In this document: positions 32,981 through 62,652 of the stretch, in pieces
Layout of the letters: each line of letters opens with the position of its first letter
Numbering within the stretch: the first letter of the stretch is position 1
DNA from: an uncultured Candidatus Saccharibacteria bacterium
GTDB lineage: Bacteria; Patescibacteriota; Minisyncoccia; Portnoybacterales; UBA2143
Assembly (NCBI GenBank): GCA_964413015.1
Contig: CAYPQZ010000006.1
Location: forward strand, 74,415-138,414
DNA length: 64,000 nucleotides
Direction: 5' to 3'
Position numbers and translations under genes: made by a program
The notes under the pieces: generated by a model
What the model was told of the DNA's origin: nothing
Database searches by the model: none
The model's input: the letters and a program-made list of their open reading frames with translations, nothing else

Positions 32981-33223
32981 TTAATCAGTTTTAACGATAT
33001 TTTCGATATTGTCTACTGTCCAAATTTCAAGCCTTTCTCGATTTTTCCCTCCAGAATATTCTCCAGGTAAAATTACGATCAATTCTACAGTATCGCTTGC
33101 TGCAGAAACCCGGCCGATTACTGCCAAAAATCCATCCTGCGTTTTATCTTTAGGATGGACAAACTTCGTTTCGCCTAATGACTTTTCAAGTTTCTTTCTA
33201 ATATCCATGCGTACCCTCCTCAT
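32981..33223 (-). CDS. Hypothetical small protein
   Basis: 80-aa ORF in an operon position. No recognisable motif. Confidence 0.3.
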   Translation of the reverse strand: MRRVRMDIRKKLEKSLGETKFVHPKDKTQDGFLAVIGRVSAASDTVELIVILPGEYSGGKNRERLEIWTVDNIENIVKTD

Positions 33224-33239
33224 CCTTAATATTTAAAAT

Positions 33240-33497
33240 TTAAAGTTCTGTTCTTAACCCCAGAGCAATGGCTTTGGCGATTCGGGTGCTGACCATTGAT
33301 TCTTTGCTGGGAATTACTTTTATGCCTTTCAAGTCAGTCAATTTAATTTTACCCTTTTTAAAGAATTTGTCAATCTCTGGAATCAAAGTTTCGCTTAATT
33401 GATAAAGGCCGGACCATTGGTGGCTGGCTATCTTTTTATTGCCCTGTTTTAGAATCAAACAAGGCTGTCTTTTTGATAAGTTAATAGTTAGGATCAT
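33240..33497 (-). CDS. TsaB/YeaZ-like N-terminal fragment-sized protein (85 aa)
   Basis: MILTIN...IKVIPSKESMVSTRIAKAIALGL resembles the TsaB N-terminal half. Confidence 0.35.
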   Translation of the reverse strand: MILTINLSKRQPCLILKQGNKKIASHQWSGLYQLSETLIPEIDKFFKKGKIKLTDLKGIKVIPSKESMVSTRIAKAIALGLRTEL

Positions 33498-36495: not shown

Positions 36496-37089
36496 TTAAT
36501 TTTCAAAGATTTTATTTAAAAGTTTGTTCCGGCCCTGCTTTGTCTTGGCAGAGTAAGGAAGAACATCTTTACTGTCTGTTTTGTCTTGAATCATCTTCAA
36601 CTGCTTGCTTAATTCTCTGTTTTTAAGCTTGTCAAATTTATTTGCTATTATTATAACCGGATGCTGATTTTTTTTCAATAAATCCAGCATTTCCATATCA
36701 AACTCGGTCGGTCCGACTTTAGCATCAATAATTAGGATTACTTTTTTAAACTTAACTCCTGAACGGAATAAATACCAGATTATCAGTTTTCTGATTTTTT
36801 CTTTTCTTTTAAAATCAACTTTAACAAATCCGTAACCGGGCAAATCAACAAAATACAACTTCTTATTTATTAAAAAGAAGTTTATCTGTTTTGTTTTCCC
36901 CGGCACGGAACCGGTCTTGACTAATTTTTCCCTTTTGACCAGTGAATTTATCACACTTGACTTGCCGACATTAGAACGGCCGACAAAAACAATCTGTGCT
37001 TTAGTATCTTCCAATATTTTATCAGTTCCAATGATTCCTTTAACAAACTCTGCCGATTTAATTTCAGTCTCAGTTTCTCTTTTTCCCAT
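36496..37089 (-). CDS. engB: Ribosome biogenesis GTP-binding protein YihA/EngB
   Basis: GRSNVGKSS P-loop with G2-G4 motifs. The start is taken at MGKRETE, with ATG at 37089. Confidence 0.85.
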   Translation of the reverse strand: MGKRETETEIKSAEFVKGIIGTDKILEDTKAQIVFVGRSNVGKSSVINSLVKREKLVKTGSVPGKTKQINFFLINKKLYFVDLPGYGFVKVDFKRKEKIRKLIIWYLFRSGVKFKKVILIIDAKVGPTEFDMEMLDLLKKNQHPVIIIANKFDKLKNRELSKQLKMIQDKTDSKDVLPYSAKTKQGRNKLLNKIFEN

Positions 37090-37149
37090 GCTTCTATTAT
37101 AACGACAAGCTCTTATCTTGGCAATCATTTAAAAATATCAATCTGGAAA

Positions 37150-37208
37150 TAAAAAACCCCTGCGGTATGCGATTAACAGTCACATTTATATAATTAAATC
37201 CGCAGGGG
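37150..37208 (-). terminator. Putative terminator for the small minus-strand gene
   Basis: A 9-bp stem cccctgcgg/ccgcagggg is followed on the minus strand by UUUUUUAUUU. The loop is large. Confidence 0.4.
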
Positions 37209-37316
37209 TTAAGTTATGATGGAGGAGGTTTCGTTAGCGCTAAAATAAGCTCGGAGAAAAGGGTTTGCCTATTTATGGCGGCTAGACGAATCTCCCCCAT
37301 CAGTTAAGTTGTGTCT

Positions 37317-37487
37317 TTATTTTATAACAAGGCCTTGGGTCTTGTCAAGGATTTTATCACGGCGGCCTGAATTTGAAAATAGACCGCTTCTTGCCAAGGA
37401 TTTCATTAATCTTCCTTTTTTTTGCCTCCTTGCAAGCATTAAAGTGTATCCCCTAAGTTTTCCCTTCGGATGCCCTTTCGATCTCAT
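37317..37487 (-). CDS. Unannotated small basic protein (56 aa), possibly ribosomal-like
   Basis: A perfect SD GGAGG lies 5 nt upstream of the ATG (minus: tagggaggatatcATG). Translation: MRSKGHPKGKLRGYTLMLARRQKKGRLMKSLARSGLFSNSGRRDKILDKTQGLVIK. It is below the 60-aa ORF cutoff. Confidence 0.45.
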   Translation of the reverse strand: MRSKGHPKGKLRGYTLMLARRQKKGRLMKSLARSGLFSNSGRRDKILDKTQGLVIK

Positions 37488-37575
37488 GATATCCTCCCTA
37501 TCTTAAATTAAAAGAATAAAATAAAAATAACATTTATATTTAAGAATGTCAAGGTTCTGCGTTTTGTTTATTAAA

Positions 37576-38400
37576 TTATCTATTCAATCCGATAAAAGGG
37601 CTGGCTTGTCCCCAGTATTCCGGAACCTGTCCGTTCCATTTCTCTATCCAGCGCAATTCAACCACCTGCGCGTTAGCCCGCAAGGCTTGCGCTTCAATCT
37701 GAATGGCCTGCGCTTTGCCCCGGGCTTCGGCAATTCTCTGCTCTGCTTCAATTTTTATTCTTTGCAAGTCTCTATCTGCTTTAAGCTTTAACTGTTCCGC
37801 CTTAACTTTTGCTTCAATAGCTTCATTAAAAGTTGCTGAAAAATCAAAATCAATAATGTTGAATTCGTCAACTACAATAAAATTTTCTAATAATCTTTTT
37901 GCAAGATTTGATTTAATCTGATCTTTAACGGTTTCTCTTTTGGTAATTAACTCTTCAGCAGTAAATTTGGCTGTTTCCGCTTTAACTGATTCCTGAATAG
38001 CAGGAGCAATAATTCTGGCATTATAATTCTTTCCTACTTCCTGCCAAACCTTATTAACTGACTCGGGATCTAAATGATAATTCAGGGCAATTTTTGAAGT
38101 AACTATCTGTAAATCCTTGGAAGAAGCGCTAGCCGGAATTTCGTCTTTTTGAATTTTAACATCCATTTTAACAACTTTTTGGACAAAAGGAATTTTCATA
38201 TAGAGGCCTTCACTAAAAACTTTGTCTTTAACTGCTCCGAATTGAAGCAAAACTCCGCGTTCTCCTGCACCAACAGTTCCAAAAGCGCCTAAAAGAAGTA
38301 TTAAAACGAAAAAACCAATAATTATGCGAGAAAAAAGCTTTTTTCCTTCAACCCCTTTTATATTTTTTATTTTCTCATTTATTTCAACAATTCTGTTCAT
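37576..38400 (-). CDS. SPFH/band-7 (prohibitin/HflC-like) protein
   Basis: N-terminal TM, an SPFH domain and a C-terminal coiled coil. Confidence 0.8.
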   Translation of the reverse strand: MNRIVEINEKIKNIKGVEGKKLFSRIIIGFFVLILLLGAFGTVGAGERGVLLQFGAVKDKVFSEGLYMKIPFVQKVVKMDVKIQKDEIPASASSKDLQIVTSKIALNYHLDPESVNKVWQEVGKNYNARIIAPAIQESVKAETAKFTAEELITKRETVKDQIKSNLAKRLLENFIVVDEFNIIDFDFSATFNEAIEAKVKAEQLKLKADRDLQRIKIEAEQRIAEARGKAQAIQIEAQALRANAQVVELRWIEKWNGQVPEYWGQASPFIGLNR

Positions 38401-38414
38401 ATTTATTTCTCTTT

Positions 38415-38987
38415 TTAACTTTTACTTTTATCGACCTTTTGTTTTATTCTACCAATAAAAGCTTTCTTTGGGAACCTCTTTTTAATAAAAAACCTCCAGG
38501 GTAAATTAGCCGACTGGCCGGCATAGTCCACGCCAATTCTTTTGCCTGAAAGTATTTTCGGTTTAAATCCCTTGTCCTCCACCCATAAAGTATCTCTGGT
38601 TAAATCAATCCCGTTGTGTTTTTGCTTAGCAATCTTGAATTCCCGACAAAGTTTTCCTGGCCCGTCGGCCAGCGGATAATCCAGCGCTCTGATAAGAACT
38701 GCCGACGGATAACCTTTATAACCGGTCACTATATTCAAGCAATGGTAAATTCCGTAAATAAGGTAAACGTAAGCGTGGCCGCCCAGTTCAAACATAACCC
38801 TGTTTCTTTCGGTCATGCCCTTAGCCGCATGGCAGGCCAAATCGTCAAATCCTTCATAGGCCTCAGTTTCAATAATCGAAGCCCGGTAAATTTTGCCTTG
38901 ATAGCGATGAACTAAATCCTTGCCAATTAAGTCACGAGCCACCTTTAGGGTTGGCCTTAAATAAAAATCGCGTTTAACTTTCATCAC
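38415..38987 (-). CDS. mpg: DNA-3-methyladenine glycosylase (AAG/Mpg family)
   Basis: RPTLKVARDLIGKDLV...IIETEAYEG...HA..G.T.RN..MF..GGHAYVYL.YG is the Mpg signature. Confidence 0.85.
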   Translation of the reverse strand: MMKVKRDFYLRPTLKVARDLIGKDLVHRYQGKIYRASIIETEAYEGFDDLACHAAKGMTERNRVMFELGGHAYVYLIYGIYHCLNIVTGYKGYPSAVLIRALDYPLADGPGKLCREFKIAKQKHNGIDLTRDTLWVEDKGFKPKILSGKRIGVDYAGQSANLPWRFFIKKRFPKKAFIGRIKQKVDKSKS

Positions 38988-39050
38988 ATTATTATAACAG
39001 ATATCAAAAAAATTACTAAAAATTCCTTCTGGTTTTTATCCCCGAAGATA

Positions 39051-42728: not shown

Positions 42729-42856
42729 CCCCGTAGAGAAATTTTGAAACATTCGCCTAGGCGAATAATAAACGGGGTAAAAAATAAGTACACGAATAAA
42801 AAGAGTTCCGAATAATTAAAAATTAGTGAATTTAAATTCAAAATTCTTCTACGGGG
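42729..42856. repeat. Family-B element (TIR ccccgtagagaaattttgaa ... ttcaaaattcttctacgggg)
   Basis: About 128 bp. The right TIR overlaps the first 3 nt of tRNA-Leu. gggcgag is found on both flanks. Confidence 0.8.
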
Positions 42857-42936
42857 CGAGTGGTGAAATGGCAAACACGCTAGCTTCAGGAGCTAGTGGA
42901 GGCAACTCCTTGCGGGTTCAAATCCCGCCTCGCCCA
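42854..42936 (+). tRNA. tRNA-Leu (anticodon CAG), long variable arm
   Basis: Acceptor GGGCGAG/CTCGCCC, anticodon arm CTAGC-TTCAGGA-GCTAG, variable arm TGGAGGCAACTCCTT, T-arm GCGGG-TTCAAAT-CCCGC. Confidence 0.85.
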
Positions 42937-43011
42937 CGCGTTTTTTATCCAAAACTTGTTTTGGGTATAAAAAACAGTGTCCGCCTCTGTCGGACTATAA
43001 ACAGCAACTTT

Positions 43012-44685
43012 ATGACAACAACACAAAATCTAAAAATTATCCCCTTGGGAGGTTTGGAAGAAGTCGGCCGGAATATGACAGTTTTTGAATATGGCCAGGA
43101 CATCATCATTGTTGATATGGGCCTACAGTTTCCCGGAGAAGCTATGCCCGGCATTGACTACATTATTCCCAATACCGCCTATCTTAAGGATAAGAAAGAT
43201 AAAATCCGCGGGGTAATTATTACCCACGGGCACTATGACCACATCGGAGCGATCCCCCATTCTATAGGACGTTTAGGCAATCCGCCTATTTACGCAACTG
43301 CCTTAACCAAAGGGATAATTCTCAAAAGACAGGACGATTTCCCTGACGCGCCGAAATTAGATATCCACCAAATTGAAAAGACTGACAAAATAAAGCTGGG
43401 TTGTTTTAACATTGAATTTTTTCATGTTAATCATAATATCCCCGGCGGAGTTGGCTTGGTTATTGGAACTCCAATCGGGAAAATTGTCCATACTGGAGAT
43501 TTTAAATTTGACCACAGTCCGATTGGCGATGAACCGGCTGACATTTCGCGCATTAGCGAAATATCTAATAGCGGTATCTTGGCTTTAATGTCTGACAGCT
43601 GTAATGCTGAAAAACCAGGCCATTCTATTTCCGAGAAAGATATTCAGGATAATCTGGAAAAAATATTCAAAGAATCATCCGGCCGAATTATTATCGCTAC
43701 CTTTGCTTCTTTAATAAGCCGAATTCAGGAAGTAATCAATCTGGCTGAGAAATACGGCCGGAAAGTAGCCATTGATGGATACAGTATGAAAATGAACACC
43801 CAGATCGCCAAAAAATTGGGATATATTAAAACTGAAAAAGGAACTTTGATAAAAATAAGCCAAGTAGACAATTACCCTAACAAGGAAATAGTCATTCTGT
43901 GCACCGGCGCTCAAGGCGAAGGAAACGCCGTACTAATGAGAATCGTTAATAAAGAGCACCGTCATGTTCAAATTAAGAAAGGCGATGTAGCAGTTTTCTC
44001 ATCATCAGTTGTTCCAGGCAACGAAAGGACGGTCCAAAATCTTAAAGATATTATCTGGAGGCAGGGCGCCCGGGTTTATCATTATCAAATGATGGACATT
44101 CATGCCGGTGGACATGCCCAGGCGGAAGACCTTAAAATGATGATTAACCTAGTCAGGCCTAAATTCTTCATTCCGGTCCACGGCAGCTACTATATGCTTA
44201 AACTGCACGGAGAAATAGCTGAAAGCGTAGGTATTAGCGAAAAGAATATTATTATTGCCGGCAATGGCAACGTTATTTCCGCCAATAAGGATACGCTTAA
44301 GTTGACTGACGAAAAAGTTCCGGCTAACTATGTTATGGTTGACGGATTAGGAGTCGGCGACGTCGGCCAAGTTGTTTTGCGCGACCGGCAGACAATGGCC
44401 GAAGAAGGCATGTTTGTGATTATTGCCACTATTGACAGCAAAACCGGCAAAGTCCAAGGAGAACCCGATATTATTTCCCGCGGCTTTGTCTATTTAAGAG
44501 AATCGAAAGAGCTTCTTTATCAAACAAGAGAAAAAGTCAAAAAGATTGTTGAACAGGCGTCTTCAGACGAGCATACGGTAAACTGGAGTTATGTTAAGGA
44601 TAATATACGTGACAAAATTGGACAATTCCTTTATACTAAAACACAGAGAAGGCCTATGGTCTTACCGGTAGTAATTGAAATTTAG
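43012..44685 (+). CDS. rnj: Ribonuclease J
   Basis: Metallo-beta-lactamase HGHYDH, beta-CASP and C-terminal domains. The start is taken at MTTTQNLKIIPLGG. The track ORF N-terminal extension overlaps the tRNA and is rejected. Confidence 0.9.
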   Translation: MTTTQNLKIIPLGGLEEVGRNMTVFEYGQDIIIVDMGLQFPGEAMPGIDYIIPNTAYLKDKKDKIRGVIITHGHYDHIGAIPHSIGRLGNPPIYATALTKGIILKRQDDFPDAPKLDIHQIEKTDKIKLGCFNIEFFHVNHNIPGGVGLVIGTPIGKIVHTGDFKFDHSPIGDEPADISRISEISNSGILALMSDSCNAEKPGHSISEKDIQDNLEKIFKESSGRIIIATFASLISRIQEVINLAEKYGRKVAIDGYSMKMNTQIAKKLGYIKTEKGTLIKISQVDNYPNKEIVILCTGAQGEGNAVLMRIVNKEHRHVQIKKGDVAVFSSSVVPGNERTVQNLKDIIWRQGARVYHYQMMDIHAGGHAQAEDLKMMINLVRPKFFIPVHGSYYMLKLHGEIAESVGISEKNIIIAGNGNVISANKDTLKLTDEKVPANYVMVDGLGVGDVGQVVLRDRQTMAEEGMFVIIATIDSKTGKVQGEPDIISRGFVYLRESKELLYQTREKVKKIVEQASSDEHTVNWSYVKDNIRDKIGQFLYTKTQRRPMVLPVVIEI

Positions 44686-61692: not shown

Positions 61693-62652
61693 CTACTTAA
61701 CTAAATTAGGCGGGGTTTGGCTTTCTAAAGCTGCAATAACATTATTGGCAGCCATTTCAGCCATTTTGTCTCTAGTCCCTAAAGTTGCTGAAGCTATATG
61801 AGGCGTTAAAACAACATTTTCTAAATCGGTTAAACCAGGCGCCAATTCCGGCTCATTCTCAAAAACATCTAAAGCCGCTCCGGCAATTTTCTTTTCTTTT
61901 AATACTTCTACCAAAGCCACTTCATCAATAATTGGACCACGGGAAGTATTGATTAAATAGGCGCTCGGTTTCATTAGAGCTAACTTTTCCGCGCTGATTA
62001 AATGGCGAGTTTCGTCTGTCAAAGCGGTATGCAAACTCACAAAATCTGATTCTTTTAATAAATCGTCTAATTCCCGGTATTTCATGCCAAATTTTTCTTC
62101 TAATTCCTGATTGCGTTTAAGGTCGTAATAAATAATTTTAACATTGAAACCATTCTGCATCCGTTGAGCCACCGCTGAACCAATTCTCCCTAATCCAATA
62201 ATTCCCAGCGTTTTCCCTTGAATATCAGCTCCTAAAAGCATTTTAGGACCCCAAGCTTTATATTTGCCAGCCCTGACAAACTGATCTGCTTCAACGATTC
62301 TTTCGGCAATAGAAAAAAGAAAAGCAATTGTATGTTCAGCCACCGCTTCAGTTAAAACGCCCGGCGTATTAGTTACCAGAATCTCTCTCTTTTTAGCTTC
62401 AGCCACATCAATATTGTTATAACCAACCGCGTAATTGGCAATAATTTTTAACTGTTCCCCAGCCGCTTCCATAACTTCTCCATCTATCTTTTCAGTTAAA
62501 ACCGACAAAATCGCCTCAACTCCTTTAACTTTTTCCAATAATTCTTCTCTGGAGATTTCCCCTTCCGGGCCAACTTCAACTTCCCAGTTTTTATCTTTTA
62601 ACATTTTGATTCCTTTTTCAGGAATTTGACGAGTAATAAATACTTTTGGCAT
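61693..62652 (-). CDS. D-isomer-specific 2-hydroxyacid dehydrogenase (glyoxylate/hydroxypyruvate reductase-like)
   Basis: GIIGLGRIGSAVAQRM Rossmann motif and a catalytic R..E..H pattern. Confidence 0.8.
   Translation of the reverse strand: MPKVFITRQIPEKGIKMLKDKNWEVEVGPEGEISREELLEKVKGVEAILSVLTEKIDGEVMEAAGEQLKIIANYAVGYNNIDVAEAKKREILVTNTPGVLTEAVAEHTIAFLFSIAERIVEADQFVRAGKYKAWGPKMLLGADIQGKTLGIIGLGRIGSAVAQRMQNGFNVKIIYYDLKRNQELEEKFGMKYRELDDLLKESDFVSLHTALTDETRHLISAEKLALMKPSAYLINTSRGPIIDEVALVEVLKEKKIAGAALDVFENEPELAPGLTDLENVVLTPHIASATLGTRDKMAEMAANNVIAALESQTPPNLVK

Follow-up and report, generated by a model that had tools for sequence, protein, structure and literature searches.

A narrowly distributed candidate gene for a small basic protein, with a conserved structured 3′ region, beside engB in a Parcubacteria genome

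Most characterised bacterial small proteins are hydrophobic, and among the small RNAs (sRNAs) of enterobacteria a type I class, including DapZ and MicL, derives from the 3′ untranslated region (3′ UTR) of an mRNA and has its own internal promoter. Small proteins and regulatory RNAs have hardly been explored in bacteria of the candidate phyla radiation (CPR), for which we know of no Hfq or ProQ context and no target. A third point of comparison is rpsU of the Flavobacteriia, which encodes ribosomal protein bS21 and carries a lone strong Shine–Dalgarno (SD) sequence in an SD-blind genome (PMC9976891, PMC7797042, PMC13000453). Here we describe a gap on the minus strand of a 64,000-nucleotide stretch of contig CAYPQZ010000006.1 (the window), bounded by a band-7/SPFH gene (37576-38400) and the GTPase gene engB. 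As read from its sequence, the gap is a real, small and self-contained transcription unit confined to a narrow lineage of Parcubacteria (CPR); it is more than chance, because its hairpins fold better than shuffled sequences, its reading frame is open and its key elements are conserved above the neutral level. We consider it probable, if only narrowly so, that this cassette is a leadered, SD-dependent gene for a small basic protein, the open reading frame ORF56, with a conserved structured 3′ UTR made of three predicted hairpins (H0, H1 and H2).

The comparison that carries this reading was provided by one other lineage, in which the cassette is present on two identical Logan contigs (L019 and L020) whose EngB is 87-88% identical to that of the window; two further loci, L001 and L002, are identical to the window itself. 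As a neutral baseline we used 259 fourfold-degenerate sites in four flanking genes, which are 56% identical between the window and L019, the proteins of these genes being 84-91% identical. The predicted features of the cassette, and the boundary on its engB side, are as follows.

37524..37552, minus strand: P1, sigma-70-type promoter with TTGACA (37552-37547), a 17-nt spacer and a TG-extended −10 element TATTTT (37529-37524); promoter scan 10/12 plus TG
37488..37517, minus strand: 5′ leader of about 30 nt with GGGAGG (37498-37493); SD block conserved in L019
37317..37487, minus strand: ORF56, 56 codons (stop included), candidate peptide MRSKGHPKGKLRGYTLMLARRQKKGRLMKSLARSGLFSNSGRRDKILDKTQGLVIK; from the ORF list, with an ORF of the same length in L019
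37325..37347, minus strand: H0, hairpin UGACAAG/CUUGUUA at the 3′ end of ORF56; from its folding z score and 79% identity to L019
37303..37310, minus strand: first copy of the direct repeat, AACTTAAC, immediately 5′ of H1; from the sequence
37217..37302, minus strand: H1, hairpin of 86 nt; from its minimum free energy (MFE), folding z score and RNAalifold
37208..37215, minus strand: direct repeat copy 2, AACTTAAC, 1 nt past the 3′ end of H1; from the sequence
37147..37208, minus strand: H2, intrinsic terminator with a 9-bp G+C-rich stem, a 34-nt internal loop or sub-hairpin and U6; from its folding z score and conservation
37089..37124, minus strand: engB promoter TTGCCA-17-TATAAT and ATG 37089; promoter scan 11/12; a boundary of the cassette, not a part of it

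Transcription from P1 is predicted to start near 37517. The block that contains P1 (37556-37518) is 95% identical to L019 (37/39 positions), as compared with 56% at the neutral sites, and even its spacer is conserved beyond the needs of a promoter. Further downstream, a 17-nt block ending in GGGAGG, AATTTAAGATAGGGAGG, is unchanged between the two alleles (17/17), and the SD and the ATG stand 5 nt apart in the window and, with a rearranged spacer, 4 nt apart in L019. The first-pass annotation of this DNA had claimed a perfect SD followed at five nucleotides by a start codon, and indeed GGGAGG (37498-37493), N5 and ATG 37487 are all in the sequence.

ORF56 runs from ATG 37487 to a TAA stop at 37319-37317 and, as had been proposed, its 56 codons encode exactly the very basic peptide listed above, with a net charge of about +15 (17 lysine or arginine residues, two aspartates and no glutamate). 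L019 has an ORF of 56 codons at the same place, with its ATG 4 nt after the same GGGAGG, and the two peptides are 40% identical. In dinucleotide shuffles, the chance of an open frame this long was 0.044 for the window and 0.038 for L019; the other two sense frames contain 3-5 stops each, and a 65-aa antisense ORF of the window is not kept in L019. When the translated interiors were compared, similarity was best in the ORF frame (40, versus at most 25 in the other eight frame pairs), and this frame-specific similarity had p=0.011 in a composition-preserving shuffle. Within the first 13 codons eight residues are identical, five of them through different synonymous codons, and both this N-terminal block and a second block, NSxxRxKxLDK, stay in frame despite several indels in the nucleotide alignment. 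Furthermore, the body of the ORF folds no better than shuffles (z −0.8 in the window and +0.6 in L019), as is expected for a coding region and not for a structured non-coding RNA (ncRNA). With these features, we judge it reasonably probable that ORF56 is translated.

The 3′ part of the cassette contains the predicted RNA structures. H0 gave fold z scores of −3.3 in the window and −4.0 in L019, where its stem consists of eight perfect pairs. For H1, the MFE was −35.3 kcal/mol, with z −6.1 in the window and −2.2 in L019. Its inner helix joins UCGU-C-UAGC-C-GC (37289-37277) to GC-GCUA-ACGA (37242-37231) through 10 bp with two single-C bulges. The H1 core (TCGTCTAGCCGCC ... TAGCGCTAACGA) matches L019 at 10/12 positions of the 5′ strand and 12/12 of the 3′ strand, the inner helix itself being unchanged, and the outer stem and apical part are 21-56% identical. 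In the outer stems, GAUGGGGGAG.../...CUCCUCCAUC of the window and CAGGGAAAGG.../...CCUUUUCUG of L019 differ at most positions and both pair, in a register read by eye. Indeed, RNAalifold on the two alleles found no broken pair in H1 and three pairs changed on both sides. The double-bulged core has the look of a specific binding site.

The terminator H2 pairs CCCCTGCGG (37208-37200) with CCGCAGGGG (37165-37157) through a stem that includes eight G-C pairs, followed by T6 at 37156-37151, and it gave fold z scores of −4.6 in the window and −3.0 in L019. Its loop of 34 nt is atypically long, and H2 was missed by the automatic terminator scan for this reason; 45/52 columns (87%), including the loop, are identical to L019, together with 9/10 positions of the U-run, so that the loop is conserved beyond the needs of a terminator. 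Several claims of the first-pass annotation were borne out in this part of the cassette: the stem and U-run are present and qualify H2 as an intrinsic terminator, the 3′ region of about 110 nt measures 108 nt from the ORF56 stop to the terminator stem, and covariation, proposed as a check, was seen as compensatory changes in the long hairpin H1 between the two alleles. As far as this comparison can indicate, visible selection bears on the start of transcription, the ribosome-binding site and the folded 3′ RNA, and not on the amino-acid sequence as such.

The SD of ORF56 stands out in this genome. An SD-like word was found upstream of about 5/62 long ORFs of the window, which agrees with the earlier statement that most genes lack an SD, a perfect one thus being rare. 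A scan for a GGAGG-type word with a start codon gave only three real gene starts with a strong SD, at 62652, 37487 and 33208. On the minus strand, engB (37089-37124) and the methylpurine-glycosylase gene (38982-38998) look leaderless; the TATAAT of engB ends 6 nt upstream of ATG 37089, and a TG-extended consensus TATAAT of the glycosylase gene ends exactly 6 nt before ATG 38984. A −10-like hexamer lies 5-8 nt upstream of a candidate start in about 12/62 ORFs, and leaderless-looking starts of this kind may explain the near absence of SD sequences.

One of the three strong SDs belongs to a second small gene, at 33208-32981 on the minus strand, with AGGAGG-N6-ATG and a product of 75 aa, or of 80 aa if an ATG further upstream is used. 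Its codon-usage log-odds of 19.4 are gene-like, and it had no Pfam, PHROG or PADLOC match. The homolog in L019 (L019 7693-7935) keeps the SD as GGGAGG-N4-ATG, and the two products are only 30% identical, as against 84-91% for the flanking genes. Since this SD-led, gene-like neighbour also diverges fast, rapid divergence appears typical of the class and does not disqualify ORF56. Just upstream of it lies an 85-aa gene (33240-33497, minus strand), and the two together fill an apparent 778-nt gap.

Several observations weigh against a protein-coding gene. The ORF body is 47-52% identical to L019 with several indels, which is about neutral; the differences by codon position (0.53/0.43/0.57) show no clear excess at the third position, and a 1-nt indel puts the C-terminal tails of the two alleles in different frames. 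The codon-usage log-odds of the two ORF56 alleles, −1.4 and −1.3, lie below those of 99.6% of real gene segments and above those of 99.5% of off-frame segments (real genes 13 ± 5, off-frame −31 ± 14). Moreover, there are two distinct alleles only, so that all the comparative statistics amount to one pairwise comparison. The peptide had no homolog in about 15 billion proteins, and no match in Pfam (E<=1), NCBIfam (E<=10), PHROGs, PADLOC or the sequences of the PDB. A word-indexed search of 5.8 billion clusters, with the peptide and with a two-allele profile, recovered only the two alleles, and an exhaustive HMMER search of 1.84 billion representatives returned only the peptide itself and two long unrelated proteins that aligned over about 20-25 residues. 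The AlphaFold model, two helices, is of low confidence (predicted local distance difference test score 68, predicted template modelling score 0.30).

The main rival to a small-protein gene is a cassette whose product is RNA only, either an sRNA of about 165 nt (from a promoter-like site, P2, through H1 and H2) or an ncRNA of about 370 nt that spans the whole unit. The frame would then be incidental or tolerated, and GGGAGG would serve at the RNA level, for example in binding the ribosome or a protein, or in intramolecular pairing. An RNA product fits the pattern of conservation, which is confined to signals in RNA or DNA (P1, the SD block, H0/P2, the H1 core and H2); it also fits the neutral identity and atypical codon usage of the ORF body, and the covarying stem that flanks the invariant bulged helix of H1. 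P2 adds to these points, with TTGACA at 37348-37343, an 18-nt spacer and TAAAAT at 37324-37319 (11/12 in the promoter scan) conserved in L019, and transcription from it could start near 37312 and give an RNA of about 165 nt that shares the terminator H2. Its hexamer regions, however, double as the arms of H0 within the block that is 79% identical to L019, and matches of 11/12 also occur inside genes of this A+T-rich genome, so that P2 is a putative promoter; with two sequences, promoter and hairpin are indistinguishable here.

What counts against an RNA-only product is that the frame is open in both alleles, with a joint chance on the order of 0.002 if the two are independent, that the SD-ATG arrangement is kept although its spacer has changed, and that the similarity is frame-specific. 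The 5′ half, furthermore, is unstructured. The first-pass annotation had offered a structured ncRNA of about 400 nt as its alternative, which holds for the 3′ portion of about 190 nt, structured, conserved and with compensatory changes, but not for the 5′ 170 nt, which fold no better than shuffles. Its suggested comparison of ORF conservation with RNA conservation was likewise divided, the frame being open in both alleles and the ORF body near neutral with indels, and the 3′ RNA part being the better conserved. The Rfam scan that it proposed gave no support: at gathering thresholds the window yielded three tRNAs only, and in E-value scans of the gap, its 3′ part and L019 against Rfam 15 the best scores were at most 23 bits, as against thresholds of 39-127 bits, with no family common to both alleles beyond a short match to the SD block. 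ARAGORN detected no tmRNA. Taken together, we regard an RNA-only product as possible but rather unlikely.

We also considered H1 as a relic resembling a miniature inverted-repeat transposable element (MITE), whose insertion between the ORF and the terminator would have duplicated a target of 8 bp (AACTTAAC), in which case the remaining gap sequence would be accessory DNA at a variable site downstream of band-7. The window indeed has a perfect 8-nt direct repeat at both ends of the 86-nt inverted repeat, but in L019 only GAAC is repeated. The outer ends of H1 vary with compensation and its inner core is invariant, which is the reverse of what is expected where a transposase recognises terminal inverted repeats. 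The 64-kb window contains one copy of H1, and when an H0-H1-H2 covariance model was applied to 188 kb of DNA from relatives, only the two copies on which it was trained were recovered. Three pattern scans of viral contigs and blastn searches against phage and plasmid sequences found nothing, and the H1 core pattern gave only two chance matches, on G+C-rich contigs, among the JGI metagenome contigs.

The distribution of the cassette is a point in favour of such an insertion, since it is absent at 76% EngB identity and each lineage examined has a different set of genes downstream of band-7. The relatives with EngB at most 76% identical (L008, L021, L006, L004, L026, L030 and L031) lack the cassette and have other genes 0-90 nt after band-7, the band-7 to engB content differing by lineage, and nhmmer with the gap as query found nothing at their loci. 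In six of them (L006, L008, L021, L026, L030 and L031) the interval holds a DUF763 gene with or without a gene for a 174-aa membrane protein, a gene for a 108-aa DUF protein, or nothing, and the flanks keep their order (MPG, band-7, engB, PD-(D/E)XK, PspC, glycosyltransferase). A tblastn search with the DUF763, 174-aa membrane and 108-aa DUF proteins left no trace in the gap, which argues against a remnant of these genes. A template/variable repeat as in diversity-generating retroelements, or an internal repeat, was rejected as well, there being no second copy of the gap sequence within the window. Overall, a MITE-like origin of H1 appears improbable.

Far less credible still is a divergent ribosomal protein, bL34-like or bS21-like, the latter with an SD autoregulatory loop as in Bacteroidia. 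The attraction of this idea lies in the small size and very basic character of the peptide, in the string LARRQKKGR, which by eye is like the bL34 C-terminus, and in a strong SD on a small basic gene of an SD-poor genome, as in Flavobacterium rpsU (PMC9976891, PMC13000453). All homology tests failed, however. The first-pass annotation had seen a resemblance to bL34, which did not survive: the peptide had no match to Ribosomal_L34 (PF00468) in Pfam at E<=1, BLASTP to Escherichia coli bL34 gave no alignment for either allele, and the LARRRAKGRKRL-type C-terminal motif, LARRQKKGR in the window, is lost in L019, where the aligned place has MEIRRREMRSRG (the ortholog reads TMEIRRREMRSRG). The resemblance is a coincidence of basic composition. 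For bS21 there was no Pfam match, and hhalign of the two-allele profile with E. coli bS21 gave a probability of 0.4%. Furthermore, the peptides are 40% identical where the neighbouring proteins are 84-91% identical, and the gene is absent at 76% EngB identity. A type I toxin-antitoxin system was also rejected, with no hydrophobic stretch of at least 15 residues in the peptide, no promoter-like site on the opposite strand of the gap and no PADLOC match.

Equally implausible is a cis-regulatory leader (riboswitch or attenuator) of engB, which the position of the gap upstream of engB on the same strand, with a terminator at its end, might suggest, but which is refuted by the gene order of L019, where the cassette stays directly after band-7 and three other genes separate it from engB; engB, moreover, has its own consensus promoter after the terminator, and no riboswitch or leader family matched.

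In L019, the sequence right after the terminator (L019 2504-2718) has a strong promoter, TTGACA-16-TATGCT with a TG, followed by AAGGAGG-N7-ATG and a basic ORF of 41 aa, for which no homolog was found in Pfam, PHROGs or PADLOC. An SD-like AAGGAG also precedes the next gene, which is aldose-epimerase-like; after it comes an ICMT-like gene, and none of these elements is present in the window.

Counted from the stop codon of band-7, the gap itself is 447 nt long if engB is taken as its longest ORF and 486 nt if engB is taken to start at 37089. It ranks fourth in the window among gaps between ORFs of at least 90 aa, so that it was rightly called unusually long, with the proviso that at least one larger gap is occupied by small genes. 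Pfam identified the neighbours as Band_7, an MMR_HSR1 GTPase (EngB/YihA), a PD-(D/E)XK nuclease and a methylpurine glycosylase. The engB start has been called in two ways, giving 210 aa from 37128 (JGI) or 197 aa from 37089 (NCBI). The EngB proteins of relatives (190-193 aa) start at the equivalent of 37089, and the start at 37089 is favoured because these proteins and the promoter position agree. The EngB of the window is 100% identical to an NCBI protein filed under 'Firmicutes bacterium ML8_F2'. Its near relatives all come from metagenome-assembled genomes of Patescibacteria/Parcubacteria, and the gene content of the window is CPR-like; the 'Firmicutes' label therefore looks wrong. Elsewhere in the window, the longest ORF at 42826-44685 on the plus strand overlaps a tRNA-Leu gene (42854-42937) in the region 42826-42937, which places its true start further downstream and makes the intergenic gap there larger than the ORF map suggests.

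The small-protein gene that we favour would operate as follows, with translation, peptide function and the role of the hairpins all inferred. P1, a strong sigma-70-type promoter, would give a leadered mRNA, which would recruit ribosomes through its perfect SD, unlike nearly all genes of this SD-poor genome. The ribosomes would make a 56-residue peptide, predicted to be helical, with its charge of about +15, and selection would act on the open frame, its length and the positive charge, and not on the exact peptide sequence. Judging from composition only, the peptide would most likely bind nucleic acids non-specifically. In the last 190 nt or so, the three conserved hairpins (H0 at the stop codon, H1 and the terminator H2) would stop transcription before engB, which has a promoter of its own. 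They would probably also stabilise or process the transcript, and they may be released from it, or made from P2, as a 3′-UTR-type sRNA of about 165 nt.

A more speculative extension, to which we give little credence, is that the peptide binds the double-bulged helix of H1 in its own transcript, forming a tiny ribonucleoprotein or autoregulatory module, and that the SD-led small genes (ORF56, the gene at 33208 and the 41-aa ORF of L019) make up a specially translated set whose expression would report the availability of the anti-SD, by analogy with rpsU of Bacteroidia. If the cassette is real as we read it, one CPR genome gains a further small gene, unannotated or hypothetical, along with an uncharacterised structured RNA. 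The presence of a few strong SDs on small, fast-evolving orphan genes, where the first genes of operons look leaderless, would bear on how translation initiation is partitioned in SD-poor bacteria. As an element confined to two sampled lineages, the cassette has limited immediate importance.

Finally, we compared the cassette with the known systems. ORF56 shares with bL34 its size, its basic charge and, in the window allele, a local LARRxxKGR-like string, but it fails every homology test. The likeness to rpsU, an SD-poor genome with a conserved extended SD before the gene of a small, very basic protein, is a functional parallel and not membership; ORF56 differs in having no homology to bS21, in its restriction to two lineages and in the presence of at least two other strong-SD genes in the window. 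With the 3′-UTR-derived sRNAs, the cassette has in common a promoter-like site in the 3′ end of ORF56, a structured RNA of about 165 nt that would use the terminator of the mRNA, and a 3′ part that is better conserved, whereas it has no sequence or Rfam relationship to them and its P2 is a putative promoter whose hexamers double as hairpin arms. The remaining comparison is with orphan small proteins of fewer than 60 aa. ORF56 differs from these in belonging to no family, in being extremely basic instead of hydrophobic and in its near-neutral divergence, but it resembles them in having its own predicted promoter, SD and terminator, in lying in a region taken as intergenic, in its narrow lineage and in being of the kind that annotation misses or lists as hypothetical.

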